A DNA stretch of 64,000 nt from Candidatus Hydrogenedentota bacterium. GTDB taxonomy: Bacteria > Hydrogenedentota > Hydrogenedentia > Hydrogenedentales > JAGMZX01. A program made the translations under genes and the position numbers. The notes below the pieces were generated by a model that was not told the DNA's origin, searched no databases, and saw nothing but the letters and a program-made list of their open reading frames with translations. Below, in pieces: positions 4,114-62,644 of this stretch. Positions within the stretch are counted from its first letter, which is position 1; each line of letters begins with the position of its first letter. Location of the stretch: positions 6,185 through 70,184 of the forward strand of contig JAGMZX010000009.1 of NCBI GenBank assembly GCA_018005585.1. Direction: 5' to 3'.

Positions 4114-4164
4114 TTGAACTTGCCGATTGCGGCAGCTATATTGAACAGGTGTTCAGATTCTGAA
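4114..4164 (+). promoter_or_regulatory. Sigma70-like promoter (TTGAAC-N17-TATATT, 4114-4142) followed by a perfect 13-bp palindrome TTCAGATTCTGAA (4152-4164): candidate TetR autoregulatory operator
   Basis: Read directly in the divergent intergenic region upstream of the TetR-Rnk gene. Confidence 0.5.
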
Positions 4165-4207
4165 TTTGGGTTCGCAACTGCCTCTGCCGGCGCGTTGAGG
4201 TGCAGTC

Positions 4208-5293
4208 ATGCCGTTCAGCGATTACAGCATGGCCCTGCCGCGGCGGGAACGCGAGAAAGCGCGCAAGAATACGGCGATTCTTGACGCGGCCCAGCGGGTA
4301 TTCCAGCGTCGCGGCTACCGTCAGGCCACCATGGAAGAGATTGCCCGGGAATCGAGTTATTCCGTGGGCACGCTGTACAACCTGTTCCGGGACAAGGATG
4401 ATTTGTACAACCAAGTCATCGCCCGGATCGGGGAAGCGGTCGTTTCGCGCGTGCAAGGGGCGGTGCTCGCGGAACGTGACCCGGAAAAGGCGATAGAGAC
4501 GCATATCCGTCTGCGCCTGTGCAACTACTTCAACGACCGGCTCTTCTTCGAGACCTTTTCGTGTCCTCCGGAACTCGGGGTACAGCCGGAACCCGGCCGT
4601 TTGGAAGCGGGCGTGCTGGCGTGTTACCGGAAATACCTCGAAGTTGCGGAGCAGTTGCTCGAACGCGTTGCGGGCCCGAAGGGCGAGGGGCGCCGCGATG
4701 ATTTTCGCATGGCGCTGGGTCTCGAAGGCATCGTAACCGCGTACATGGGCTACTGGGCCGGGCCGCGCCAGTCCGACTCGCTTACAGCCATCGCGCACCA
4801 GATACACACGATGCTGTTGCGCGGCGTGGGCTCAGACCGCTTCCGTCAGGCGGCCGCGCCGGATGCTGCGCCGGCCGCGTTGCGCGAGGTTCATCTTTCA
4901 AGTTACGACCTTGAACGGCTTCGGGAACTCATTACGGTGGCGCGCGATTTTGGCGGCGCCGCCTGTTCGGCGTATCTGGACGTGCTCGACGCGGAACTGA
5001 ATCAGGCCCGGGTTGTGCAACCGCGCGAAGTGCCGCCGAACTTGGTCACAATGAATTCGCGCGTACGGCTGCGCCATGCCGACACCGGGGAAGAACGGGT
5101 TTGCGTACTGGTGTTTCCAAAGGACGCGGAAGTGCGCGAAGAAAACGTGTCCATTCTCAGCCGTCTGGGCACGGCGCTGCTGGGCTTTCGTGTGGGCGAC
5201 ATTATCGAATACACGTCGACCCGGGGTACGGCGCGCTACCGCATCGATGCGCTGCTGTACCAGCCGGAAGCCGCCGGAGACTACCACTTGTGA
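4208..5293 (+). CDS. Fusion regulator: N-terminal TetR-family HTH domain plus C-terminal Rnk/GreA-like (Gre-factor C-terminal FKBP-like) domain
   Basis: TetR_N motif 'ILDAAQRVFQRRGYRQATMEEIARESSYSVGTLYNLFRDKDDLY'. The C-terminal 130 aa 'VTMNSRVRLRHADTGEE...VSILSRLGTALLGFRVGDII' aligns to the standalone Rnk at 23169..23564 ('VTMNSRVQLRDV...VSVLAPLGAAILGYRVGDTF'). Confidence 0.75.
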   Translation: MPFSDYSMALPRREREKARKNTAILDAAQRVFQRRGYRQATMEEIARESSYSVGTLYNLFRDKDDLYNQVIARIGEAVVSRVQGAVLAERDPEKAIETHIRLRLCNYFNDRLFFETFSCPPELGVQPEPGRLEAGVLACYRKYLEVAEQLLERVAGPKGEGRRDDFRMALGLEGIVTAYMGYWAGPRQSDSLTAIAHQIHTMLLRGVGSDRFRQAAAPDAAPAALREVHLSSYDLERLRELITVARDFGGAACSAYLDVLDAELNQARVVQPREVPPNLVTMNSRVRLRHADTGEERVCVLVFPKDAEVREENVSILSRLGTALLGFRVGDIIEYTSTRGTARYRIDALLYQPEAAGDYHL

Positions 5294-16519: not shown

Positions 16520-19500
16520 TCAGTTGGGCGCAAAGCAGAAGCCGTCTTCCGTGCCGGAATCCGGGCACGGATAGCAGCCGCCCGCATTGTAGAACTGCAC
16601 GACCCGGAGCAGTTCGGACAAGTCGATCCGCCAGTCCGCGGGGGCGTAGTCGAGGTCGTGCGGCGGGCACCATTGGCCGCCCGGCCCGGGCGCGTATCCA
16701 TCTTCCGTGCCCAGTTCGCAATGGTGGCTCTTCGTGTTATAGAACTGGATGACGCGCAGCAGCTCGGCGAGGCCGATGCGGAAATCGCCGTTCTGGTCCG
16801 CGGTATGGCCGCAATCATCGAGGATGATGACCGTGCGTACGACGGGTTCGGCTTCGTTCCCCTGGCTGTCTGCGACACGGTAGGTGACGGGGTATTCGCC
16901 GGGTGAGTGCTCCACAATGCTGCTCTCGGCCCGGATGAAGGCGGTCCTGTCGCCGTCTACGAGGTCGAAGGCCATCGCGCCGGGGTCCATGAAGTCGTCG
17001 AAGCAACGCAGCGTCACTATGGCGTCGCCTATGAGCACGAGCGTGGGCGCGGTGGAATCGGCGACCAGCACATGGCGGACGGACGGCTGGGCCTCGTTGC
17101 CTTCCGAATCCGACACCCGATAGGTCACCGTGTATGCTCCCGGCGTGTCTTCATCCACAGTGTTTTCGACCTGCAGCAGCGCCGTAAGGTCGCCCTGGCG
17201 CGAGTCCGCGGCGATGGCGCCCGGGTCGGCATAGGCCGTGCCCGCTTCGTGCAGGAGAGTCTCCGGCCCGATTAAAGTAATGACCGGCGGCGTCGTGTCG
17301 GCCACATGGACCAGGCGCTGCGCGTCGGCCGTATTGCCCGACGCGTCTTCTACCGAATAGGCGACGGTGTAATCGCCCAGCACGGCGACGTTCACGTTGT
17401 CCGTCACCACAATGGCGGCGGTGAGGTCGCCATCCACGGTGTCCGCGGCGGTGGCGCCCGGGTCGGCATAGGGGGTCGCTGCTTCATGCGTCAGTTCAGA
17501 GGGGCCTGTGACCGTGATTATGGGGGCGGTCGTGTCCACGACATGAACGGCGCGCAACGCTTGTGCCGGATTACCAGACGAGTCGGCCAGTGAATAGGTG
17601 ACCGTGTAATCACCCGGAATCGCCGGGTTCACGTCATTCGCGGTCTGTATGGCCGCGGTGAGATCGCCGTCGTAGTTGTCGAACGCGGTGGCACCTGGGT
17701 CATTGTAGGGTTCGGGCGCTTCGTGGGTCAGGGGATTGTCTCCCGTGACGGAGAGCACGGGCGGGACCTCGTCCACGACATGAACCGTGCGCACGGCCGG
17801 GATGGACACATTCCCCGCGGCGTCCTGCGCGGTATACGTCAACACGTACGCGCCCAGTATCTCCGTATCGGCCATGCCGATGACGACTACGGCCGCGCTG
17901 AGGTCGCCGTCGAGCGCATCCCACGCCACGACCCCCGGTTCTGCGAAGGGCTCTCCGACGGGGACGGACATGTCCGCAGGCCCCAGGAGCGTCACGAAAG
18001 GAGGTTGCGTGTCAACGACATGGACAGTTCGCGAGACGGTTACCGCATCGTTGCGGTTGGCGTCACGCACGTCGTAGGCCAGCACGTACGTGCCGGGCGT
18101 CATGACATCCACGCTCCCCGTCACCCGTATCTCGGGGGTGATGTCACCGCTGAAGGAGTCCCACGCGGTCGCGCCGGGGTCATTGAACGGTTCGGCCGCC
18201 TCGACGGTCATTTCCGCGTCTCCGAGCATCGTGATGACGGGGATTGTGCGGTCGCGCACGTCCACGATGCGCGTCGCCGTCAGCGCAAAGTTGCCCGCGG
18301 TGTCCTCGACATCATAGGTGACGCTGAACGTGTCGATCAGGCTCGGATTGACGTTGTTCGTCATGTTCAAGCGTTCGCTGATGTCGCCCTCCCGGTCGTC
18401 CATGGCAGTTGCGCCGGGATCGAGGTACGGCTCCCCTGCTTCGGCCGTCAACCGGCCCGGTCCGTTCAGCGCGATGACGGGGGCTACCGTGTCGATGATG
18501 AGTTCATCGGTGGTGCTGTCGTGCCCTTCGCGGTTGTACGCGCCTACGGCCCGGACGCGCACGTCGTACACGCCGTCCGGCAGCGGGTCGGGCACGTTAT
18601 GAACCCACTCGTTGTTATCGACGAGGACAGCGCGCCACGTGGCGCCGTCCAGGCTCAGCCCCAGCGCCACCGAGTAGCGCACCGTGCCGGTAATGGCCGG
18701 GCGGGAATCGTTGGTGATCAACGGGTCGACCGTCAGTTCGGGCGCGGGCGGGTAGTAAGAGCCCAGCACGGCGCGGACGTATTCGGGCACGGTTGCGTCG
18801 AGGCCGCCTATGTTCTCGAATTCCTCATAGTTCAGCGCGCCGTCCAGGTCGAGGTCGCCCAGGGACGACAACGGCAGGTCGGCGCCGTTCGAGTAGGGGG
18901 CATAGTCGCCCTCGAGCGACAACCCCGCTTTCAGGATGTCGGCAAAGGCCTGGTCGAGCGTCGCCAGCGCGGCCATGATGTCGAACACGGGGGCCAGGAA
19001 CGGGATACCGGGTTCCACACGGAGCAAGGCCAGATTGGCGTCATGAACCTGTTGCACCGTCTCATGGAGCGGGTGATGTTCATCGCACAAGATAGCCGCG
19101 AGCACGGAAATTTCGTAGCGGTCCGGAATCATGCTGACGTCCGCGTCGGCGGTTTGCCAGACGTCCTCCTCGAACGCGAATTCATAGAAATCGCGGCCTT
19201 GGCTCTCGAACGTGACCGCCACGTCGCAATTGGGAATGGCGGCATCCGGCGCCCGGTTCGGGTCGGAGGCCTCGTCGGCATAGACCTCCGGCGAACCGCC
19301 GCGTATGAACGTCCACGTGAATTCGCGGTCATTGGAGGCGCCGTCGCCGTCCAGGTCGGACGCGGCGGCAAACGGCTCTGCGCTTTCGTACTGGAGGCCG
19401 GCGATTGGGGCGGTCAGGGCCATGTCCTGGACGATGCTGTCTGCGGCTTCCTGGGAGCTTGCGGCGAACAGGGACAGATACCCGATATAGGGCAGGAACA

Positions 19501-21580
19501 GTTCCGCGGCGGGGTCTGCTTCAAGCGCGGCGCGATTGTCCGCGTATACGAGGGCCAGCGGGTCATGGAGCGGGTGCCTCCCGTCGCAGAAGACCCGGCC
19601 CAGCAGCGCAAGTTCGTAGCGGTCAGGAATGCCATTGTCACCCCAGTCCGCGTCTTTCCATTCGATACCCTGCTGCAACGCGACGAAGAATGCCTCTGCC
19701 TCGTCATCGAACACGCTCGGATCCGGGCACGTGGGCAGGTCGTCGGGGCCGCAGCCGGCCGTGGATGCCGCGATGGCGTATTCGACGTGGGCGCACTCCT
19801 GGTCTACAACCCAGTCATATTCGAACAGGTTCGAGATTTCGTCGCCGTCCGGGTCGCCGAGGGACGCAAGCGGAAACGCCATGTCCAACTCGAAGACGCT
19901 GTATGCCGCGGTGAGAGAGAGCGCGGAAACGATGCCGTCGCGCAAGTCAGGCGATATGGCGCAGAACGCTGCAATCGCGTCCGTATAAGGTTCCAGCGCT
20001 GCAAAGCCGGGCTCCGATTCGAGTGCGGCGGCGTTGGAGGCGATAGCGGCCTGAAGCGGGTCATGTCCGGGATATGACGTGTCGCAGCACAGGCGCGCGG
20101 CGAGAGCGAGTTCGAAACGGTCCGGAATGCCGTTGCCGTCCAGGTCAGCGAAAGGCCAAGCGCCGCCGAGTTGTGCGTCATAGAGCGCGTTGCCCTGCAT
20201 TTCCAGAGCCGTAGCTTGGGCGCAGTCCAACAGGCCGCCGCCGAGCCAATAGGCTTGGACACCGCGGAAACTGCCATCGTCCAGGCGCTTCAGCGGATAC
20301 CAGACCGCGTCGTAAATCGTGTCGTCGTCCACGAGGTCGAGGGCGACCGTGCCCGCGCCCGTCATGCCGGAAACGGTGACAAAACAGGTGGCGTCCGCGC
20401 CTGACATGTCCGAAATCACGGCATCGGATACACTGGCCGAAGTGCGCACGGAGAAATCCGTGACATCGACACCGGTAACGGGCTCGGTGAACTTGACCTC
20501 AAAGATGACCTCCGGCGCGTCCGTCGGATTAGCGGCTTCCGCCAAAGGGCGAATACTGGCAACCACGGGCGGGGTGGAATCCGCGAGCCAGGCCGCGTAG
20601 CACTGGCGCACCGCGTTTTCCATGAACGTCAGGAAACCCTCCGCATTCAGGTGGAGCGGGTCCATCTCGCCGTCATCTATTTTCATGACGATACGCGGGT
20701 TGTACAGGTCTGGCCTGCCATTCGGGAAATTGGCGTAGCCGTTCTCCGGCCCGTCGGGTATGCCGGCTTCGCCCGGTTCCACCCCCTCGGCAGGCACGCC
20801 AAAAACGTGCTGGACATAGCCGAAATTGTGGATGTACGTGACGCGGCCGGGAAACTCTTGCGCGAGTTCAATCTTGCGCCGCTCCAATTCGGCCCAAATG
20901 TCGTGTACTTCCCGGACGATTTCGAGCACTTCCTGCCGGTTGGCGGGTATTGGATAGCCCCAGTAGGTGACCGCCCAGTGCGTGATGCTTTCGTAGTCCC
21001 AGACTTCGCCGAAATCGTTGATCATGAAGCCTTCGTACAAGTTGACGTAATCGTAGCCCAGCAAGGCCACGCGCACGTCCGGGCGCTGGTCGAGGCAGAA
21101 CTGCACCACGTTCCGGATGTGGCCGATGATTTCGGCCATCATCGTATCGACCTGCGCCGGGCTCATGAATTGTTTCCATGTGTGAACGATGTCGTTGCCG
21201 CCCAGGCTTACGTGGCAGATATCGAGCGTGGGCAAGGCAGCCAGCCGGTCCGCAATCTTCTGAAGCTGCTCCGGCGTGTCCCAGCCTTCCGCGAAGATAT
21301 TGGTCAAACCGATACTGCCATCTTCGCGGTACTGCCCGAGGTCGAATTCCGGGCGGGCAAGGACTTCCTCGAGCGCGGGCGGCGATTGCAGCGCGTAGGG
21401 GAAAAACACCCAACTGTCGCCAACGTCCAGGATGCGCGCGATATCCCCCCGCGCGCATACCGCGAAGCAGCATAATGACAGCACGACACCGCACGACCGC
21501 CGAAACGCATCCCGCTTGCCAACTGCGTTCCGCGCGCGCCTTGCCTTGCCGCACCACACGCTCCGCCGCTGCATTCTCAC
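16520..21580 (-). CDS. Giant secreted multidomain protein (1686 aa). Domains in order: SGNH/GDSL hydrolase domain; three ~140-aa repeats flanked by Dx[DN]xDG calcium-binding motifs; an Ig-like domain; 7 tandem DUF5011-like ~77-aa repeats; C-terminal pair of dockerin-like repeats.
   Basis: 'ILDVGDSW' (GDS) and 'HVSLGGNDI' SGNH blocks. Repeats 'DLDGNGIPDRFELA..CD..HPLHD' appear three times. Seven repeats of 'DxxxPxIxLxG...xExGxxYxDPGATAxDxxDGDLT' follow. C-terminus has 'DQNGDFRIGLAELLRVIQFYN' and 'DWRIDLSELLRVVQFYN'. Confidence 0.8.
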   Translation of the reverse strand: MRMQRRSVWCGKARRARNAVGKRDAFRRSCGVVLSLCCFAVCARGDIARILDVGDSWVFFPYALQSPPALEEVLARPEFDLGQYREDGSIGLTNIFAEGWDTPEQLQKIADRLAALPTLDICHVSLGGNDIVHTWKQFMSPAQVDTMMAEIIGHIRNVVQFCLDQRPDVRVALLGYDYVNLYEGFMINDFGEVWDYESITHWAVTYWGYPIPANRQEVLEIVREVHDIWAELERRKIELAQEFPGRVTYIHNFGYVQHVFGVPAEGVEPGEAGIPDGPENGYANFPNGRPDLYNPRIVMKIDDGEMDPLHLNAEGFLTFMENAVRQCYAAWLADSTPPVVASIRPLAEAANPTDAPEVIFEVKFTEPVTGVDVTDFSVRTSASVSDAVISDMSGADATCFVTVSGMTGAGTVALDLVDDDTIYDAVWYPLKRLDDGSFRGVQAYWLGGGLLDCAQATALEMQGNALYDAQLGGAWPFADLDGNGIPDRFELALAARLCCDTSYPGHDPLQAAIASNAAALESEPGFAALEPYTDAIAAFCAISPDLRDGIVSALSLTAAYSVFELDMAFPLASLGDPDGDEISNLFEYDWVVDQECAHVEYAIAASTAGCGPDDLPTCPDPSVFDDEAEAFFVALQQGIEWKDADWGDNGIPDRYELALLGRVFCDGRHPLHDPLALVYADNRAALEADPAAELFLPYIGYLSLFAASSQEAADSIVQDMALTAPIAGLQYESAEPFAAASDLDGDGASNDREFTWTFIRGGSPEVYADEASDPNRAPDAAIPNCDVAVTFESQGRDFYEFAFEEDVWQTADADVSMIPDRYEISVLAAILCDEHHPLHETVQQVHDANLALLRVEPGIPFLAPVFDIMAALATLDQAFADILKAGLSLEGDYAPYSNGADLPLSSLGDLDLDGALNYEEFENIGGLDATVPEYVRAVLGSYYPPAPELTVDPLITNDSRPAITGTVRYSVALGLSLDGATWRAVLVDNNEWVHNVPDPLPDGVYDVRVRAVGAYNREGHDSTTDELIIDTVAPVIALNGPGRLTAEAGEPYLDPGATAMDDREGDISERLNMTNNVNPSLIDTFSVTYDVEDTAGNFALTATRIVDVRDRTIPVITMLGDAEMTVEAAEPFNDPGATAWDSFSGDITPEIRVTGSVDVMTPGTYVLAYDVRDANRNDAVTVSRTVHVVDTQPPFVTLLGPADMSVPVGEPFAEPGVVAWDALDGDLSAAVVVIGMADTEILGAYVLTYTAQDAAGNVSIPAVRTVHVVDEVPPVLSVTGDNPLTHEAPEPYNDPGATAFDNYDGDLTAAIQTANDVNPAIPGDYTVTYSLADSSGNPAQALRAVHVVDTTAPIITVTGPSELTHEAATPYADPGATAADTVDGDLTAAIVVTDNVNVAVLGDYTVAYSVEDASGNTADAQRLVHVADTTPPVITLIGPETLLHEAGTAYADPGAIAADSRQGDLTALLQVENTVDEDTPGAYTVTYRVSDSEGNEAQPSVRHVLVADSTAPTLVLIGDAIVTLRCFDDFMDPGAMAFDLVDGDRTAFIRAESSIVEHSPGEYPVTYRVADSQGNEAEPVVRTVIILDDCGHTADQNGDFRIGLAELLRVIQFYNTKSHHCELGTEDGYAPGPGGQWCPPHDLDYAPADWRIDLSELLRVVQFYNAGGCYPCPDSGTEDGFCFAPN
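16820..18470 (-). repeat. Intragenic tandem array (about 7 units of about 230 bp) encoding the DUF5011-like repeats of the giant protein. Boundaries are approximate.
   Basis: Periodic protein motif 'DPGATA.D..DGD' and recurrent DNA strings (for example 'gcccgggtcggcatagg' at about 17221 and about 17461). Confidence 0.55.
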
Positions 21581-21840: not shown

Positions 21841-22377
21841 TCAATAGTTCTCGGGGACAATTTCAAAATAGGACTGCGGATGCCCGCATATGGGGCATTT
21901 CATCGCGGCCTTTGCGCCCTCGTGAACAAAACCGCAGTTCCGGCAACGCCATTTGACTTTTCCGGGCTTCTGAAATACCTGGCTGTCTTCCAGATTCTTC
22001 AACAGCGCCTGATACCGTTCCTGGTGTTCCTTCTCGATCTTCCCGATGCCTTCGAGGACGCGGGCAATGTCCGCGAAGCCTTCCTCGCGTGCCTCGGCGG
22101 CCATTCGAGGATACATGTCAGTCCATTCCTCGTTCTCGCCCGACGCCGCGGCTTTCAGATTGTCGAGGGTGCCGCCGATACCGCCCAATGCCTTCAAGTG
22201 GAGCTTGGCATGCTCCTTCTCCTGTTCGGCCGTCTCCAGGAAAATCGCCGCGATTTGCTCATACCCCTCCTTCTTGGCGACGGAAGCGAAATAGGTGTAT
22301 TTGTTCCTTGCCTGCGATTCGCCGGCAAAGGCTGCCCAAAGGTTCTTCTCGGTTTTTGAGCCATTCAATTCCGCCAT
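21841..22377 (-). CDS. rbr: Rubrerythrin (ferritin-like diiron domain plus C-terminal rubredoxin-like Cys4 domain)
   Basis: 'EGESQARNKYTYFA', 'ETAEQEKEHAKL', C-terminal 'WRCRNCGFVHEG...CPICGHP'. Confidence 0.9.
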   Translation of the reverse strand: MAELNGSKTEKNLWAAFAGESQARNKYTYFASVAKKEGYEQIAAIFLETAEQEKEHAKLHLKALGGIGGTLDNLKAAASGENEEWTDMYPRMAAEAREEGFADIARVLEGIGKIEKEHQERYQALLKNLEDSQVFQKPGKVKWRCRNCGFVHEGAKAAMKCPICGHPQSYFEIVPENY

Positions 22378-22415
22378 GATACAGACTCCTTGGTTTCTTG
22401 CGGCAGGTTTGCATG

Positions 22416-22433
22416 TACATAAACATTTATGTA
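22416..22433. promoter_or_regulatory. Perfect inverted repeat TACATAAA-CA-TTTATGTA, 39-56 bp upstream of the rubrerythrin start: candidate operator for a Fur-family (PerR-like) or other redox repressor
   Basis: Palindrome read directly. It lies in an AT-rich patch within an otherwise GC-rich locus. Confidence 0.45.
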
Positions 22434-22936
22434 ACAATTGCATTCAAACCCGCGCGCATGACGACGTGCCGGAAGCGTTCAATCTAGGGCAACGCGCCAC
22501 GGCTATGCAACCTCTTGCCGGATGAGGTGTGACATCATGGAAAGACCCGCGCTGAGTCCAAATGAAAATGGCCACTCAAGGGGACGCGTGCAGAATAGGG
22601 GCAAACAAGCCGGACGCTCGTCCTCTGACAGCCCGAGAATGGGAGGGACTGTCACGTCTCCGGTCGAACGCACGGAGAGGCATGACCGGTCTAGGGAGGT
22701 TTGCCTGGACCGCGTTTGCCTTTCTGGTGTCTGGGCTTGGGTTGACTAAGAGGCGAGAACCTTATTACCATGAATTCAGGTTCAGTCTTGAATATGCGTT
22801 CAGTACCCAGGAAGGATGCGGAGTATGGCATCTGGCCAAAGAGCACGAGAACTTGTACGAACCTGCGGCTGGCCCCATCCTGGGTGCCGCCAAGTGCAGC
22901 TCTGGCAAGGAAAAGGTATCAGCACAGAAGTGTCGT

Positions 22937-22969
22937 GGCCCCGTCCCGGAGACCGGGGCCGTTTTGTTT
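22937..22969 (+). terminator. Rho-independent terminator-like hairpin on the plus strand (GGCCCCG-tcccggagac-CGGGGCC followed by GTTTTGTTT)
   Basis: 7-bp GC stem with a T-rich tail, read directly. Located in the 0.8-kb lower-GC gap between rbr and rnk. Confidence 0.5.
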
Positions 22970-23168
22970 CCTGCACGGGGATGTCATGTTGCGTATGCCG
23001 GAAGGTTGCGCGGCGCGGCGCGCCGCATGACAGACACGTGTACACACCCTTTAGGAATGCCGGCCTTTAAAGATGGGTGCGGCGATGATATTCCGCGGAG
23101 CCCGTGTCTGCATGACTCCGGCAGGGTCTGCCGGTGCTTTCTGGAAAGCTATTGGAGGAAATCCGAGC

Positions 23169-23564
23169 ATGGCTAAGCAGATTCACATCACCGCGCAGGA
23201 CAGGCAGCGGCTGCTGGAATGCCTCGCCGTGGTGCACGAGTTTCCGGACAAGCGTGACCTGCCGCATATCCGGCAGCTGGAGGAAGAGATTGCGCAGGCA
23301 CAGATAATCATCGATGCGCTCATGACTCCCGAGGATGTGGTCACGATGAATTCGCGCGTACAGCTGAGGGACGTTACCGCGGACAGAGACCTGGAATGCA
23401 CGCTGACGTATCCCGGTGAACGCGACCCGGACAACGAGAGCGTGTCGGTGCTCGCGCCACTGGGCGCGGCCATACTCGGGTATAGGGTGGGCGATACCTT
23501 TGTGGCAGACTTGCCCGAAGGACGGACGCAGTTCCGCATTGAGAGTGTCCGTCATCGGCCCTAG
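23169..23564 (+). CDS. rnk: Rnk-like regulator (GreA/GreB C-terminal domain protein; regulator of nucleoside diphosphate kinase family)
   Basis: 'MAKQIHITAQDRQRLLE...VTMNSRVQLRDV...VSVLAPLGAAILGYRVGD'. Confidence 0.8.
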   Translation: MAKQIHITAQDRQRLLECLAVVHEFPDKRDLPHIRQLEEEIAQAQIIIDALMTPEDVVTMNSRVQLRDVTADRDLECTLTYPGERDPDNESVSVLAPLGAAILGYRVGDTFVADLPEGRTQFRIESVRHRP

Positions 23565-37735: not shown

Positions 37736-39907
37736 TCACAGCGTATTCCGCAGGCGTTCGGTGAGGCGGGTGTTGCGGCGGGTGATCATGTTGTTGCGCA
37801 CGGCGGTGGCGATCGCCTTGGGGGTTCCGACGATGACGACGACGCGGCGCGCGCGCGTGATGGCCGTGTACAGCACGTTGCGCTGGAGCATCATGTAGTG
37901 CTGCGGCAGCAGGGCGAGCACGACCGCCGGATACTCGCTCCCCTGCGATTTGTGGACCGTCGCCGCGTAGGCGAGGCCGAGATCATCGAGGTCGTCGAAG
38001 TCGTAGAGCACTTCGTGATTGTCGAAAGAAACCCCGAGCGCGCGCTCGTCCTCGCGCACGTCCGTGATGACGCCGACGTCGCCGTTGAAGACCTCGAGTT
38101 CGTAATTGTTGCGCAATTGCATGACCTTGTCGCCTGCGCGGAAATTGCGGCGCGGCACGGGCGCGCCGTTGGGGTTGAGCGCCTGTTGCAGCGCCTCGTT
38201 GAGCCGGGTAACGCCTGCGTCGCCGCGGTGCATGGGCGCCAGCACCTGGATGTCGCGGGCCGGGTCGAAACCGAAAGAACGGGGCAGGCGGCGCTGCACC
38301 ACCTCGACGACCGTTTCGAGCGCTTGCGCCGGGTCAGAGCGCTGGATCAGGAAGAAGTCCTTTGTGTTGAACAGCGGCTGTTGACCGGTGTTGATCCGGT
38401 GCGCATTCGCGATGATCCCGCTCTCCGCCGCCTGCCGGAACACCGTATGCAGCCGCACGGTGGGGAAGCAGTTGCTCGCGATGATGTCCAGGAGCACGCT
38501 GCCGGGGCCGACGGACGGCAGTTGATCGATATCGCCGACCAGGATCAGCCGGGCGTAAGACGGCAGCGCTTTCAGCAGGTGGTGCATGAGGGCGATGTCG
38601 ATCATCGACGCCTCGTCGATGACGAGCAGCTCGACGTGCAACGGGTTATACTCGTTGCGCGTGAAGCCGCCGTTCTGCGGGCTGTATTCGAGAAGGCGGT
38701 GAATCGTGCGCGCGGGCCGGCCCGTAGCCTCTTCCATGCGTTTCGCGGCGCGGCCTGTCGGCGCGGCAAGAAGGCATACGACGCTCTTCTTCTCGTTAAT
38801 AGCCAGGATGCTCTTGATCACCGTCGTCTTGCCCGTGCCGGGACCGCCCGTGATAACCATGACCTTCGCGCTGAGCCCGATGCGCACGGCATCGCGCTGC
38901 TCCGGCGACAGTTCGATGGATTGCGCGCGCTCGGCATAGCGCAGCGCGTTGTCGACGTTCTTGATGGGGGGCAGGTCGTCCCTGGCGGCGGCCAGACGCT
39001 TCAACCGTTCGGCGCAACCGGACTCCGCGGCGTGCCAGCGCACGGCAAAGGTCCAATCGTCCTCGGCAACCATGCGGTTTTCCAGGACCAGCGCCTGAAA
39101 CGGGCTTTCAATCGCCGTTTCAGGCACTTGCAGCAGTTCCGCGCCGTCTTTCAGCAGATTTTCCCGTTTCAGGCAGACATGGCCGTCGTTTGCGGCCTCG
39201 TCCAGCACGTGCAGGAGGCCCGCCTGGATGCGTTGCGGCGCTTCGGGCGCGATGCCGAGTTCGCGCGCGATCTTGTCCGCCGTGCGGAACGCCACGCCGG
39301 AGATGTCCTGCGCCAGCCGGTACGGATTCTCGCGCAACACGGCCACGGCCCCGTCGCCGTAGCGCTTGTATATCTTGGCGGCAAGCGCCGTGCCGATGCC
39401 ATGCCCCTGCAGAAAGATCATAATCGATTGGACCGACTTCTGGCGCGCCCACGCCTCGCGGATCTGCGCCGCCCGCTTCGGGCCGATGCCGGGCACGCGC
39501 TGGAGCCGCGCCGGTTCCTCGTCGATGACGCGCAGGGTCTCGACGCCGAACGTCTCCACCAGCCGCTTCGCGTAGACCGGGCCGACGCCCTCGACCAGTC
39601 CGGAGCCGAGGTACTTCTCAATGCCCTGCACCGTCGCGGGCAGGACGGTCTGAAATGACTCGACGCGCAGTTGCCGGCCAAACCGCTTCTCGTCCACCCA
39701 GCGCCCCGTGAGCCGGACGGTTTCGCCCGGCGACACGGCCAGGAACGTGCCCACGAAGGTCAGGAGGTCCGGGCGGCCTTCCTGCTTGAGGCGGGCCACA
39801 AAGAAGCCGTTTTCGGCGTTTTCGTAGACGACGCGCTCGACCACGCCCTCGATGGTCACGAGAGGTTCGAGGTCTGTTTGTTCGGGGCTTGTGCCGCTGT
39901 TTCCCAT
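37736..39907 (-). CDS. recD2: RecD2-type ATP-dependent 5'-3' DNA helicase (RecD/TraA family, SF1B) with N-terminal HhH domains
   Basis: Walker A 'VITGGPGTGKTT', 'LLAAPTGRAAKRM', 'LLVIDEASMID', 'VGDIDQLPSVGPG', 'TVHKSQGSE'. Confidence 0.85.
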   Translation of the reverse strand: MGNSGTSPEQTDLEPLVTIEGVVERVVYENAENGFFVARLKQEGRPDLLTFVGTFLAVSPGETVRLTGRWVDEKRFGRQLRVESFQTVLPATVQGIEKYLGSGLVEGVGPVYAKRLVETFGVETLRVIDEEPARLQRVPGIGPKRAAQIREAWARQKSVQSIMIFLQGHGIGTALAAKIYKRYGDGAVAVLRENPYRLAQDISGVAFRTADKIARELGIAPEAPQRIQAGLLHVLDEAANDGHVCLKRENLLKDGAELLQVPETAIESPFQALVLENRMVAEDDWTFAVRWHAAESGCAERLKRLAAARDDLPPIKNVDNALRYAERAQSIELSPEQRDAVRIGLSAKVMVITGGPGTGKTTVIKSILAINEKKSVVCLLAAPTGRAAKRMEEATGRPARTIHRLLEYSPQNGGFTRNEYNPLHVELLVIDEASMIDIALMHHLLKALPSYARLILVGDIDQLPSVGPGSVLLDIIASNCFPTVRLHTVFRQAAESGIIANAHRINTGQQPLFNTKDFFLIQRSDPAQALETVVEVVQRRLPRSFGFDPARDIQVLAPMHRGDAGVTRLNEALQQALNPNGAPVPRRNFRAGDKVMQLRNNYELEVFNGDVGVITDVREDERALGVSFDNHEVLYDFDDLDDLGLAYAATVHKSQGSEYPAVVLALLPQHYMMLQRNVLYTAITRARRVVVIVGTPKAIATAVRNNMITRRNTRLTERLRNTL

Positions 39908-61969: not shown

Positions 61970-62644
61970 ATGCCGTCCACTCAGACCGCGCACAAACGCA
62001 AATGCATACCCGCGCGTGTGAAGAACAACGAATTGGTCGAGAAGAAACGCCGCGAACTTGTCAATGCGGCCGTGGGCCTGTTCACTCGGAAGGGGTTCCA
62101 CCGGACGACGACACGCGAATTGGCCGAGGCGGCGGGCTGGTCCGTGGGGCTGCTGTATGAGTACGTGAAGAGCAAGGAGGACGTGCTTTACCTGGTTTGC
62201 GAGGCGATCCACAGGGACATGGAGCATGCGTTGCGTGAGCGGATTGGGGGGGCGGCAACGGGCCGCGCGTCGCTTGAGGCGGCGATTGCGGAGTACATGC
62301 GCGTCTGCGACCGGATGCAGGACGCGATTCTGCTGATTTACCGCGAAACGGGCGCGCTGGACGCGGTATCCCGCCGCTTCGTATTGCGAAACGAAGAGCG
62401 GATCACCCGCATCTTCGAGGAAATCCTGCGCGCCGGGCGGGAAGATGGCACGCTGCGCCTTCGCGACGGCAGGGCGCTGCGGCTCATGGCGCACAACGTC
62501 GTCGTGCTCGGACATATGTGGGCGTTCCGGCGCTGGTTCCTTGCCAAGAGCTACACGGTGGATGAATACAGCCGCCAGCAGACGGCGTTGATCTTGAATG
62601 AAATGACTTCGGCAAACGAGGGATCCAGGACATGGCCGCCGTGA
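61970..62644 (+). CDS. TetR-family transcriptional regulator
   Basis: 'LVNAAVGLFTRKGFHRTTTRELAEAAGWSVGLLYEYVKSKEDVLY'. Confidence 0.8.
   Translation: MPSTQTAHKRKCIPARVKNNELVEKKRRELVNAAVGLFTRKGFHRTTTRELAEAAGWSVGLLYEYVKSKEDVLYLVCEAIHRDMEHALRERIGGAATGRASLEAAIAEYMRVCDRMQDAILLIYRETGALDAVSRRFVLRNEERITRIFEEILRAGREDGTLRLRDGRALRLMAHNVVVLGHMWAFRRWFLAKSYTVDEYSRQQTALILNEMTSANEGSRTWPP

Follow-up and report, generated by a model that had tools for sequence, protein, structure and literature searches.

Introduction

Promoters that are autoregulated by TetR-family repressors can carry palindromic operators over the -10 box and start site, as in tetO and QacR IR1. Rnk, the regulator of nucleoside diphosphate kinase, is an RNA polymerase secondary-channel protein. 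Translation across a hairpin normally suppresses intrinsic termination. In the greA leader of E. coli, a terminator hairpin separates the promoter from a Gre-family gene; two-thirds of the greA transcripts terminate in this leader and yield the short GraL RNAs, termination was shown experimentally, and the GraL stem is conserved among enterics (PMC2836576).

Here we examined the gap between a rubrerythrin gene and an rnk gene in 64,000 nucleotides of a Candidatus Hydrogenedentota contig (the window, by which we mean this whole stretch). The original prediction had described the gap as a lower-GC island that ends a plus-strand transcript in an intrinsic terminator, and had proposed an ncRNA or a small protein in it. 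Comparison with relatives points instead to the remains of a gene for a TetR-Rnk/Gre fusion regulator, with each of the systems above resembling a part of the locus.

Results

Layout of the gap and the relatives available for comparison

The gap measures 791 nt (22378-23168), and the rnk that follows it is the first gene of rnk-pntAA-pntAB-pntB (Table 1). The lower-GC island is present as predicted; with a GC content of 0.50-0.60 over 22300-23000 compared to 0.60-0.70 in the flanks (200-nt windows), the drop is mild. The lowest value, 0.50 at 22300-22499, belongs to the rubrerythrin upstream region. This region also contains the palindrome TACATAAACATTTATGTA (22416-22433), of which the window has a single copy against a chance expectation of 0, a candidate operator that probably serves the minus-strand rubrerythrin promoter. 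To the right of it, similarity to the diverged relative L060 begins only at ~22690, and no homolog of the spacer at 22451-22689 was found in any relative locus retrieved. The left part of the island is thus composed of an AT-rich rubrerythrin promoter region and a species-specific spacer. A search for a repeat or mobile-element origin of the island found no further copies within the window.

L060 was the sole diverged and informative relative, and the comparative power is accordingly low. Fifteen other contigs, found by exact matches of the Rnk and rubrerythrin proteins, match the window at 99.4-100% identity and yielded 7 SNP positions; being so similar, they are useless for conservation tests beyond these SNPs. 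The matching contigs derive from metagenomes of sewage-type and other origin (e.g. JGI 3300027914, SRR11088371). The best match to Rnk in a scan of a genome collection was 41% identical, so a close genome is lacking in that collection.

Table 1. Features of the gap, its flanking genes and the paralogous locus (positions in the window)
Feature	Position	Strand	Basis or remarks
Intact paralog (TetR_N + Rnk_N + GreA_C) including its promoter	4114-5293	plus	start 4208 or 4229, stop 5293
Rubrerythrin gene	21841-22377	minus	Pfam Rubrerythrin + RUBY_RBDX
Rubrerythrin upstream region, AT-rich	22378-22450	minus	separate from the relic
Species-specific spacer	22451-22689	none	not alignable with L060
Sigma-70-type promoter of the lost regulator	22742-22771	plus	promoter scan and family matrix; -35 TTGACT (22742-22747), 18-nt spacer, -10 TACCAT (22766-22771)
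Tandem 14-bp palindromic candidate operators	22771-22802	plus	TGAATTCAGGTTCA (22771-22784), overlapping the final base of the -10 box; TGAATATGCGTTCA (22789-22802)
Ribosome-binding site and relic ATG	22809-22816; 22825-22827	plus	AGGAAGGA; ATG
Degenerate remnant of the first ~33-35 codons (TetR helix-turn-helix region)	22825-22935	plus
Terminator-like hairpin	22936-22969	plus	stem 22936-22961, T-tract TTTTGTTT 22962-22969
Unrecognisable sequence in place of the ~950-nt regulator gene body	22970-23136	plus
Conserved spacer directly before rnk	23137-23168	plus	homologous to the relatives' fusion-gene/rnk spacer; rnk SD GGAGGA at 23154-23159
rnk (GreA/GreB-family, Rnk-like, 131 aa)	23169-23564	plus	Pfam Rnk_N + GreA_GreB C-term

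A fusion regulator gene occupies the same position in relatives

In related Ca. Hydrogenedentes contigs, a gene encoding a 355-358-aa TetR_N+Rnk_N+GreA_C fusion stands directly upstream of rnk-pntAA-pntAB-pntB. The order fusion gene, rnk, pntAA was found in seven independent loci (L061, L066, L067, L070, L072, L074 and L075), with 42-44 nt between the fusion gene and rnk. The promoter before the relatives' fusion gene is of the sigma-70 type, and its -10 box extends into the first member of a tandem pair of palindromic operators (TGAAT-N4-ATTCA, 4 nt, TGAAn-N4-ATTCA).

An nhmmer profile of the 5' regions of five relatives, searched against both strands of the whole window, matched 22738-22924 with 39.3 bits (E=8.5e-12). 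This match spans the -35 and -10 boxes, both operators, the SD, the ATG and ~33 degenerate codons. The promoter part by itself gave E=3e-5 to 1e-3 and the coding part by itself, with the five close relatives, a weak E=0.019. When the 130 nt after the ATG were shuffled, none of 300 shuffles reached the real score (maximum 29.3 bits, median 19.6 bits). In the alignment, the stump's SD and ATG coincide with those of the fusion genes in relatives. At the other end, a profile of six relatives aligned from ~32 nt before the rnk ATG onwards (42.7 bits), and downstream homology is limited to 23137-23168.

Between these two ends, ~170 nt of unrecognisable sequence stand in place of the ~950-nt gene body. 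This sequence is ~88% identical to L060, its substitutions show no preference for a codon position, and it includes an imperfect inverted repeat of 20 nt (22974-22993 / 23021-23040) as well as a small hairpin (23118-23134). It shows no DNA or protein similarity to the fusion gene, and a search of 22960-23136 for the 3' end of the gene found nothing. Searches for the fusion regulator by tblastn and protein HMM gave no match in the six-frame translated island, in L060 or in the L064 gap, and a DNA profile of the HTH-coding region from 18 genes did not detect the relic.

From the homology at its two ends, ~22690-23168, the right 60% of the island, is recognisable as the remnant of a TetR_N-Rnk_N-GreA_C fusion regulator gene: it is homologous to an intact gene at the equal syntenic position and has lost coding integrity and purifying selection. 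The ncRNA gene that had been proposed for the island is not supported, the region being homologous to the 5' end of the regulator gene found at that position in relatives. As in other bacterial pseudogenes and deletion remnants, an intact homolog persists at the equal syntenic position in relatives, ~1070 nt have shrunk to ~340 nt, a frameshift separates close relatives and the substitutions are neutral. The stump differs from these in its upstream control region, where promoter, two operators, SD and ATG still fit the family consensus at first rank; it also heads an operon that presumably still needs a promoter, and part of it may remain in use.

The stump has lost coding constraint

Compared to L060, the stump is 87.8% identical, with 16, 12 and 13 substitutions at first, second and third codon positions. 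Substitutions in rnk and pntAB are dominated by third positions, with a third-position divergence in rnk, pntAA and pntB of 7-10.6%. The stump diverges at about the rate of third codon positions in these neighbouring genes, which is roughly neutral, and it carries no coding constraint. One extra A (22838-22840) in the window relative to L060 shifts the frame, and the remaining frame has at most 116 codons compared to 355-358 in the intact gene.

The even spread over codon positions and the frameshift also speak against the small protein that had been proposed for the gap. A real protein could in principle be encoded by the 204-aa ORF (22562-23176), by the 116-aa ORF of L060 or by a small ORF, and two observations favour it: gene callers predict the 204-aa ORF in every assembly, and the L060 ORF that starts from the SD/ATG ends in a ATGGCTAA overlap with rnk, a geometry of translational coupling. 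Yet just one homolog of the 204-aa ORF, which runs through the hairpin into the start of rnk, was found among 5.8 billion proteins, and the earlier judgement that this ORF is implausible as a gene holds. Its N-terminal 90 residues lie in sequence that L060 lacks, and because of the frameshift the start codon and frame are not common to the window and L060. Amino-acid identity is 74-75% at 88% nucleotide identity, and substitutions are even over codon positions in all frames. Thus the 204-aa ORF has neither conserved homologs nor an excess of synonymous change nor a shared start and frame. A Pfam search of ten candidate ORFs on both strands returned the flanking genes only, with no domain in the 204-aa or 75-aa ORF. 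The 75-aa ORF (22522-22749) lies mostly within the non-homologous spacer, and the two within-species SNPs in it (22685 and 22726) fall on codon positions 2 and 1; an 86-aa ORF begins inside the -10 box and operator. We consider a real protein scarcely credible here, and the 204-aa hypothetical protein annotated in public assemblies is almost certainly spurious.

The promoter and operators of the lost regulator remain readable

The original prediction expected a plus-strand transcript to start somewhere after about 22450, and a promoter-like TTGACT-18-TACCAT does lie downstream of that point, at 22742-22771. We compared it with a matrix made from 17 foreign fusion-gene promoters from other metagenomes, all of the same architecture: the -35 and -10 boxes are 17-18 nt apart, and the -10 box reaches into the first of a pair of 14-bp palindromes whose starts are separated by 18 nt. 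The stump shows this layout. With 128 kb searched, the best match lay at 22739 and scored 31.5 bits, compared to 23.6-73 bits for the training sites. The second-best match (4110, 25.2 bits) is the promoter of the intact paralog, and a 6.0-bit match on the reverse strand at 22834 is an echo of the relic's own palindromic operators. All remaining sites in the window scored below -4.8 bits, against a background of -67 ± 13.6. The motif TGAA-N6-TTCA occurs three times in the 64 kb compared to 0.28 expected, at 22771-22784, 22789-22802 and 4142-4155.

Conservation in L060 is uneven over this module. The -35 and -10 hexamers are identical, and the SD and ATG lie within a 33-nt stretch identical to L060. 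Both L060 operators are damaged, with 5 changes in 9 nt, and the matrix score falls to 3.5 bits; a test for targeted loss gave P=0.30. The damage and the low score speak for the L060 lineage, at least, being able to do without functional operators. Among positions invariant in relatives, the relic has kept 22 of 27 in the promoter/UTR compared to 26 of 39 in the early coding part, a difference with which selection on the promoter is not separable from recent decay.

These data bear on whether the stump is wholly inert, its promoter and operators as dead as its coding part, with rnk-pntAB transcribed from an unrecognised promoter in 22970-23168 and the hairpin only insulating rnk-pntAB or doing nothing. 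Divergence from L060 at a neutral level along the whole block, the degraded L060 operators with their low matrix score and the lack of significant excess conservation of the promoter over the coding remnant would all fit such a relic, and neither the clustering of mismatches nor the identical run reached significance. On the other side, a consensus scan gave no sigma-70-like promoter downstream of the hairpin and ahead of rnk, and the hexamers are unchanged in both species. The stump also beats the intact gene's own promoter in the family matrix, where it is the best in the window, and the short gap between fusion gene and rnk in relatives suggests co-transcription from a promoter of the stump's type. 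We regard a wholly inert relic as rather unlikely. The orphan promoter is probably still the promoter of rnk-pntAB.

An intact paralog carries the same operator motif

The window contains an intact paralog of the lost regulator, 46-49% identical to the relatives' fusions by tblastn. Its promoter, TTGAAC-17-TATATT (4114-4142), is followed by the operators TGAACAGGTGTTCA (4142-4155) and TGAATTTGGGTTCG (4161-4174), and in the L103 ortholog of the paralog the operator half-sites are conserved while the spacers have diverged. From the shared motif, the paralog is a candidate trans-acting repressor of the orphan operators, 18 kb away.

The layout at the stump resembles TetR-autoregulated promoters in that the lost regulator carried a TetR HTH at its N terminus, the tandem 14-bp palindromes overlap the -10 box, and the same layout recurs before the regulator's own gene across the fusion family. 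It differs in that the fusion regulator adds a C-terminal Rnk/GreA-like module (Pfam Rnk_N + GreA_GreB) and in that the cognate gene is gone at the stump, so that control of the stump would need the paralog.

Like Rnk, the rnk product matches Pfam Rnk_N + GreA_GreB and NCBIfam PRK05753 (91.7 bits for the latter), and so does the lost regulator in its C-terminal half (103.7 bits). Unlike Rnk, both fall under the equivalog cutoff of 109, and their association with pntAB transhydrogenase genes and with TetR fusions is particular to this lineage. The TetR-Rnk/Gre fusion family comprises at least 76 sequence clusters, and its source-named members all come from Ca. Hydrogenedentes. No description of TetR-Gre/Rnk fusions was found in the papers searched, and the family is apparently uncharacterised.

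The hairpin before rnk lies within decayed coding sequence

The plus-strand hairpin with a T-tract that had been reported before rnk was confirmed at 22936-22969. Its structure is that of an intrinsic terminator: a GC-rich stem of 10 pairs (8 G-C) with one bulged C, a short loop of 5 nt (CCGGA) and an immediate 3' U-tract. Its position is not, because a terminator is expected behind a stop codon, where a transcription unit ends: none of the three plus-strand frames has a stop within the hairpin, no ORF stops just before 22936, and in both the window (stop 23070) and L060 (stop overlapping rnk) it lies inside the ORF of the relic ATG. Similarity to the regulator gene ceases to be recognisable at the hairpin, which is absent from relatives with an intact fusion gene.

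We counted 4 terminator-like sites in 2.5 kb compared to 2.3 ± 1.7 in shuffles, and ~30 hairpin and T-tract sites of similar energy on both strands of the window, among which the site at 22936-22969 ranks 16th; the 51-nt hairpin fold has z=-0.8. By these counts the hairpin is not statistically exceptional. It is unchanged in L060, within a 48-nt mismatch-free run (P=0.07 by simulation), which leaves some room for a selected terminator. Most likely, the hairpin arose incidentally during decay and does not terminate a dedicated RNA.

The suggestion that the region is a leader or attenuator for rnk keeps some standing from the geometry, and it has gained no support from our comparison, in which a covarying antiterminator pairing was not found. 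By analogy with greA, transcripts from the orphan promoter would partly stop at 22962-22969, which would set the level of rnk-pntAB and leave short RNAs as by-products. The promoter and the T-tract hairpin do share a strand, ~160-190 nt apart, before a Gre-family gene; the hairpin is perfectly conserved in L060, and the E. coli greA leader provides a precedent (PMC2836576). The likeness to that leader is one of arrangement and extends neither to sequence nor to Rfam similarity, and the Rfam library, which gave no match, is assumed to include the enterobacterial greA-leader (GraL) family. In further contrast to GraL, the hairpin here stands ~200 nt before rnk inside the relic ORF, which is served by a good SD and start codon in the window and in L060 alike, it arose from decayed coding sequence, and its conservation is not significant. 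We consider an attenuator very unlikely.

The island shows no signature of a structured RNA

With Rfam 15 at gathering thresholds, the only match in the whole window was one tRNA. Relaxing the search of 22300-23300 to E<=10 added three chance matches to eukaryotic miRNA/snoRNA families at 14-18 bits, compared to gathering thresholds of 54-100 bits, and ARAGORN found neither a tRNA nor a tmRNA in the island. The families covered by Rfam 15 include 6S, tmRNA, RNase P, SRP, riboswitches, leaders and sRNAs. The fold of the putative 192-nt transcript (22778-22969) had z=+0.36, compared to -1.21 for 22970-23175 and -1.39 for 22440-22975. In an RNAalifold analysis of three sequences, of low power with its one diverged relative, 1 of 127 pairs was compensatory and the covariation term was -0.97 kcal/mol. 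The island thus shows neither folding beyond shuffles nor compensatory changes of the kind expected from a structured ncRNA.

A stand-alone trans-acting sRNA of ~190 nt (~22778-22969), co-opted from the 5' part of the dead gene, would nevertheless have a segment of suitable size at hand, bracketed by promoter and terminator, and the 33-nt and 48-nt runs identical to L060 fall at the two ends of this segment. Its fold is no more stable than shuffles, it belongs to no Rfam family, and its substitutions relative to L060 accumulate at a neutral rate with no structural compensation. Three within-species SNPs (22856, 22868 and 22898) fall inside the segment, which moreover carries an SD and an ATG. 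The unclassified sRNA considered by the original prediction gains no support, and we judge such an RNA highly improbable.

Discussion

The explanation that we favour, and hold to be fairly probable, is that the gap is a decayed fusion-regulator stump whose orphan promoter still drives rnk-pntAB under paralog control. The gene body of the fusion regulator has been lost, leaving the promoter, operators, SD, ATG and ~33 degenerate codons. The orphan promoter probably still transcribes rnk-pntAB, and the paralog (4208/4229-5293) probably represses it in trans, as the operator motif common to both promoters suggests. Ribosomes entering at the retained SD/ATG would translate a meaningless ORF across the hairpin; translated in this way, the hairpin would be masked as a terminator and is most likely incidental.

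A bolder variant would make the stump an orphan control module, in which the TetR + Rnk/Gre-like fusion encoded at 4229-5293, as a regulator of an undescribed class, governs rnk and pntAB in trans and the relic's 5' transcript, with its end at the hairpin, acts as an attenuator or a newborn sRNA. The Rnk/Gre-like module of the regulator would then bind the RNA polymerase secondary channel. We regard this variant as quite unlikely.

With the decayed stump as the favoured reading, the outcome for the candidate ncRNA locus is deflationary: what remains is the remnant of a gene, left by ordinary gene decay. It is also a clean example of a regulator gene that decays while its promoter-operator module stays readable before the operon that the gene formerly headed. 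Decay that leaves such a module readable would be a route by which cis-regulatory DNA is handed to a paralog. It is the TetR-Rnk/Gre fusion family, with its well-defined tandem operator and its recurrent link to rnk and pntAB, rather than the island, that deserves follow-up.

A decayed fusion-regulator gene upstream of rnk

The lower-GC island predicted between rubrerythrin and rnk is real as sequence: the gap of 791 nt has a GC content of 0.50-0.60 in 200-nt windows over 22300-23000, versus 0.60-0.70 in the flanks. Its biology is ordinary: a regulator gene has decayed here, its promoter-operator module can still be read, and no new RNA is involved. Four loci of relatives, found by a search with Rnk (58-69% identical), were examined. 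In three of them (L061, L066 and L067) the gene directly upstream of rnk-pntAA-pntAB-pntB encodes a protein of 355-358 aa that combines TetR_N, Rnk_N and GreA_GreB domains, and in L061 and L066 this fusion gene is present as two tandem copies. In the fourth, L064 (Rnk identity 64%), the fusion gene is missing, and rnk is preceded by a gap of 970 nt in which no gene is called (L064 3034-4000). Searches of that gap with the fusion protein and with the promoter profile gave no match; it contains a promoter-like TTGACA-17-TATCCT ~190 nt before rnk. This relative may have lost the regulator in a separate, older event.

Searches with tblastn and a protein HMM of the fusion regulator found no trace of it in the island. 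At the DNA level, nhmmer matched a block of the window to the start of the rnk-proximal fusion copy in L061 and L066, and a profile of the 5′ regions of five relatives (-110 to +200), run on both strands of the whole window, matched 22738-22924 with E = 8.5e-12. Past the promoter, operator and start signals listed in the table, the alignment continues through ~33 degenerate codons that belong to the TetR helix-turn-helix (HTH), for example ATCCTGGGTGCCGCCAAG against ATCCTTGATGCGGCTGAA. When the profile was split, the promoter/UTR part gave E = 3e-5 to 1e-3 and the coding part E = 0.019. With the 130 nt downstream of the ATG shuffled, the score fell from 39.3 bits to a median of 19.6 (maximum 29.3, 300 trials), so the coding part adds real signal. 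The relic was not detected by a broader HTH-region profile of 18 genes; what supports its coding homology is the match to the closest relatives, together with colinearity. The HTH DNA profiles of the fusion genes also matched a conventional TetR-family regulator (TetR_N + TetR_C_24) at 61994-62600 (+), with E ~1e-9; this gene is unrelated to the operator motif.

On the right side, the stretch homologous to the relatives reaches back from the rnk ATG by just 32 nt, within the SD-bearing spacer. Because homology is limited to the 5′ part and these last 32 nt, ~950 nt of gene body must have been replaced by ~170 nt of unrecognisable sequence.

Features of the rubrerythrin-rnk gap, tandem fusion genes of relative L061, and promoter-matrix matches (window coordinates unless marked)
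Feature	Position	Strand	Score (bits)	Remark
rubrerythrin	21841-22377	-		left flank of gap
AT-rich upstream region of rubrerythrin	22378-22450			from sequence
Species-specific segment	22451-22689			no homolog in any fetched locus
Relic -35 TTGACT	22742-22747	+		alignment with relatives
Relic -10 TACCAT	22766-22771	+		alignment with relatives
Relic 14-bp palindrome 1, TGAATTCAGGTTCA	22771-22784	+		alignment with relatives
Relic 14-bp palindrome 2, TGAATATGCGTTCA	22789-22802	+		alignment with relatives
Relic SD, AGGAAGGA	22809-22816	+		alignment with relatives
Relic ATG	22825-22827	+		alignment with relatives
rnk	23169-23564	+		right flank of gap
Tandem fusion genes of L061	L061 1509-2585 and 2880-3956			
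Matrix rank 1	22739	+	31.5	relic promoter
Matrix rank 2	4110	+	25.2	promoter of intact paralog
Matrix rank 3	22834	-	6.0	relic palindromes read in reverse
All other matrix matches			below -4.8	background -67 ± 13.6

The promoter-operator module

When metagenomes were scanned with an alignment of fusion proteins, 19 loci were recovered whose fusion genes were full-length or nearly so, and the order fusion, rnk, pntAA recurred in 7 loci. Seventeen independent fusion promoters shared TTGACA, a 17-18-nt spacer and a TAnnAT that overlaps TGAAT-N4-ATTCA, with a second palindrome 4 nt further on. The matrix scanned on both strands of the window was built on 17 foreign sites and contained no window sequence. 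Three occurrences of TGAA-N6-TTCA were found in the 64 kb versus 0.28 expected, all at the promoters of the relic and of the intact paralog. The latter gene (4208/4229-5293, +) encodes all three Pfam domains and is 46-49% identical to the relatives' proteins. Its ortholog in L103 (84% amino-acid identity) keeps the hexamers and operator half-sites while the intervening sequence has diverged, a footprint of selection at this promoter. The relic retains 22 of 27 invariant positions in the promoter/UTR versus 26 of 39 in the early coding part, a difference that fits recent decay as well as selection on the module.

In L060, the locus of the sole diverged relative informative for the gap, the operators are damaged (matrix score 3.5 bits), and the clustering of its five changes in the operators was not significant (P = 0.30). 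The -35 and -10 hexamers of the relic are unchanged in both the window and L060.

Divergence of the relic and the RNA and protein readings

Fifteen same-species contigs (99.4-100% identical, from exact-protein look-ups) had just 7 SNP positions in rubrerythrin plus the gap; 6 were in the gap, 3 of these between the relic start and the hairpin. L060 was reached via P0002, a 116-aa protein, and its rnk-pntAB genes are 95-97% identical to the window at the nucleotide level. Upstream of its rnk operon stands a family-78 rhamnosidase gene (-; L060 5381-6000) in place of rubrerythrin, and the alignment with the window begins only at ~22690 and extends rightwards. The abrupt onset of this homology, ~50 nt ahead of the relic -35 box, places a rearrangement breakpoint beside the relic. 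Over 22840-23176 (336 nt past a 1-bp indel) identity was 87.8%, with 16/12/13 substitutions by codon position in the ORF frame and equally flat counts in the remaining two frames. Third positions took 14 of 20 substitutions in rnk, 28 of 43 in pntAA and 41 of 58 in pntB (third-position divergence 7-10.6%). The indel, an extra A at 22838-22840 in the window, puts the frame out of step with L060. Together, the flat pattern, the identity and the indel indicate that the block is non-coding and evolves at about the neutral rate. That the relic is fully inert is possible, and we rank this first among the alternatives.

The original prediction of an ncRNA or small protein was not borne out. An Rfam search of the whole window at gathering thresholds returned a single tRNA, located elsewhere, and at E ≤ 10 over 22300-23300 only three chance matches to eukaryotic miRNA/snoRNA models; ARAGORN called no tRNA or tmRNA in the gap region. 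The putative 192-nt transcript (22778-22969) folded no better than shuffles (z = +0.36; z = -1.21 for the downstream 206 nt), and RNAalifold found a compensatory change in 1 of 127 pairs. A nascent sRNA is possible and ranks last of the alternatives. Elsewhere, ARAGORN reported a 'tRNA-???' with a two-base anticodon at 39203-39288 (+), probably a false positive since Rfam at gathering thresholds calls no tRNA there.

No candidate ORF on either strand of the gap matched Pfam. The 204-aa ORF (22562..23176) spans the hairpin and overlaps the rnk start as described, and the doubt cast on it was justified: among 5.8 billion proteins its sole homolog outside the species is P0002, 74% identical across the C-terminal 112 residues. 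With no coding pattern, a single homolog and a frameshift relative to L060, the 204-aa protein of public gene calls was rejected as almost certainly spurious.

The left part of the island holds an 18-bp near-perfect palindrome, TACATAAACATTTATGTA (22416-22433), which precedes the rubrerythrin start codon by ~40 nt. It occurs only once in the window (0 expected by chance) and is a possible operator at which a peroxide- or metal-sensing repressor would control rubrerythrin. A 75-aa ORF in the species-specific segment carries within-species SNPs at codon positions 2 and 1.

The terminator-type hairpin

The predicted hairpin is present: its stem spans 22936-22961 and has 10 pairs, a single bulged C and the loop CCGGA, and TTTTGTTT comes directly after it at 22962-22969. 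The hairpin lies at the left edge of the unrecognisable replacement sequence. It is statistically unremarkable for a GC-rich genome: 4 terminator-like sites were observed in 2.5 kb versus 2.3 ± 1.7 in shuffles, the local fold gave z = -0.8, and in a separate scan the site was mid-rank among ~30 hairpin-plus-T-tract sites of similar energy across the window. A 48-nt run over the hairpin, identical in the window and L060, was not significant (P = 0.07). The best candidate of the window scan was a strong hairpin with a T-tract at ~16393 (-), just past the stop of a 1686-aa ORF (16520-21580, -) with many Ig-like repeats (Bact_surface_Ig-like; precomputed Pfam hits on matching contigs). A second small hairpin at 23118-23134 (CCGGCAG-GGT-CTGCCGG, then TGCTTTCTGG) lies ~20 nt upstream of the rnk SD; L060 differs there at two positions, both within the loop or adjacent to it, and retains the stem.

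Open frames cross the 22936-22961 stem in all three plus-strand frames, and thus no ORF ends just upstream of it. In the window, the ORF from the retained SD and ATG ends at 23070, and in L060 it extends far enough to overlap the rnk start; because it spans the hairpin, its translation would tend to keep the hairpin from acting as a terminator. A leader attenuator of rnk, comparable to the greA/GraL leader of E. coli (PMC2836576), is possible and ranks between the inert relic and the nascent sRNA.

Probable present working of the locus, and the fusion family

The distance from the end of the fusion gene to rnk is just 42-44 nt in the relatives, which suggests that rnk-pntAB was probably co-transcribed from the operator-controlled promoter. 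With the regulator gene lost, the gap has no other sigma-70-like site ahead of rnk, and the hexamers of this orphan promoter are unchanged in both species. We therefore consider it most likely that the orphan promoter still drives rnk-pntAB, under repression in trans by the intact paralog.

The fusion proteins (~355 aa) combine a TetR DNA-binding domain, a TetR-like middle region and a C-terminal Rnk_N + GreA/GreB module, which is expected to bind RNA polymerase. The family comprises at least 76 clusters at 90% identity; those bearing a source name are all Ca. Hydrogenedentes, under the generic labels 'TetR family regulator' or 'GreA/GreB elongation factor'. Members were noted in the window (the intact paralog), L061, L066, L067 and L070-L088, and the genes often form tandem pairs, usually upstream of a stand-alone rnk and pntAB. 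A literature search found no paper describing the TetR-Rnk/Gre architecture, and this family is a more interesting by-product of the analysis than the island itself.
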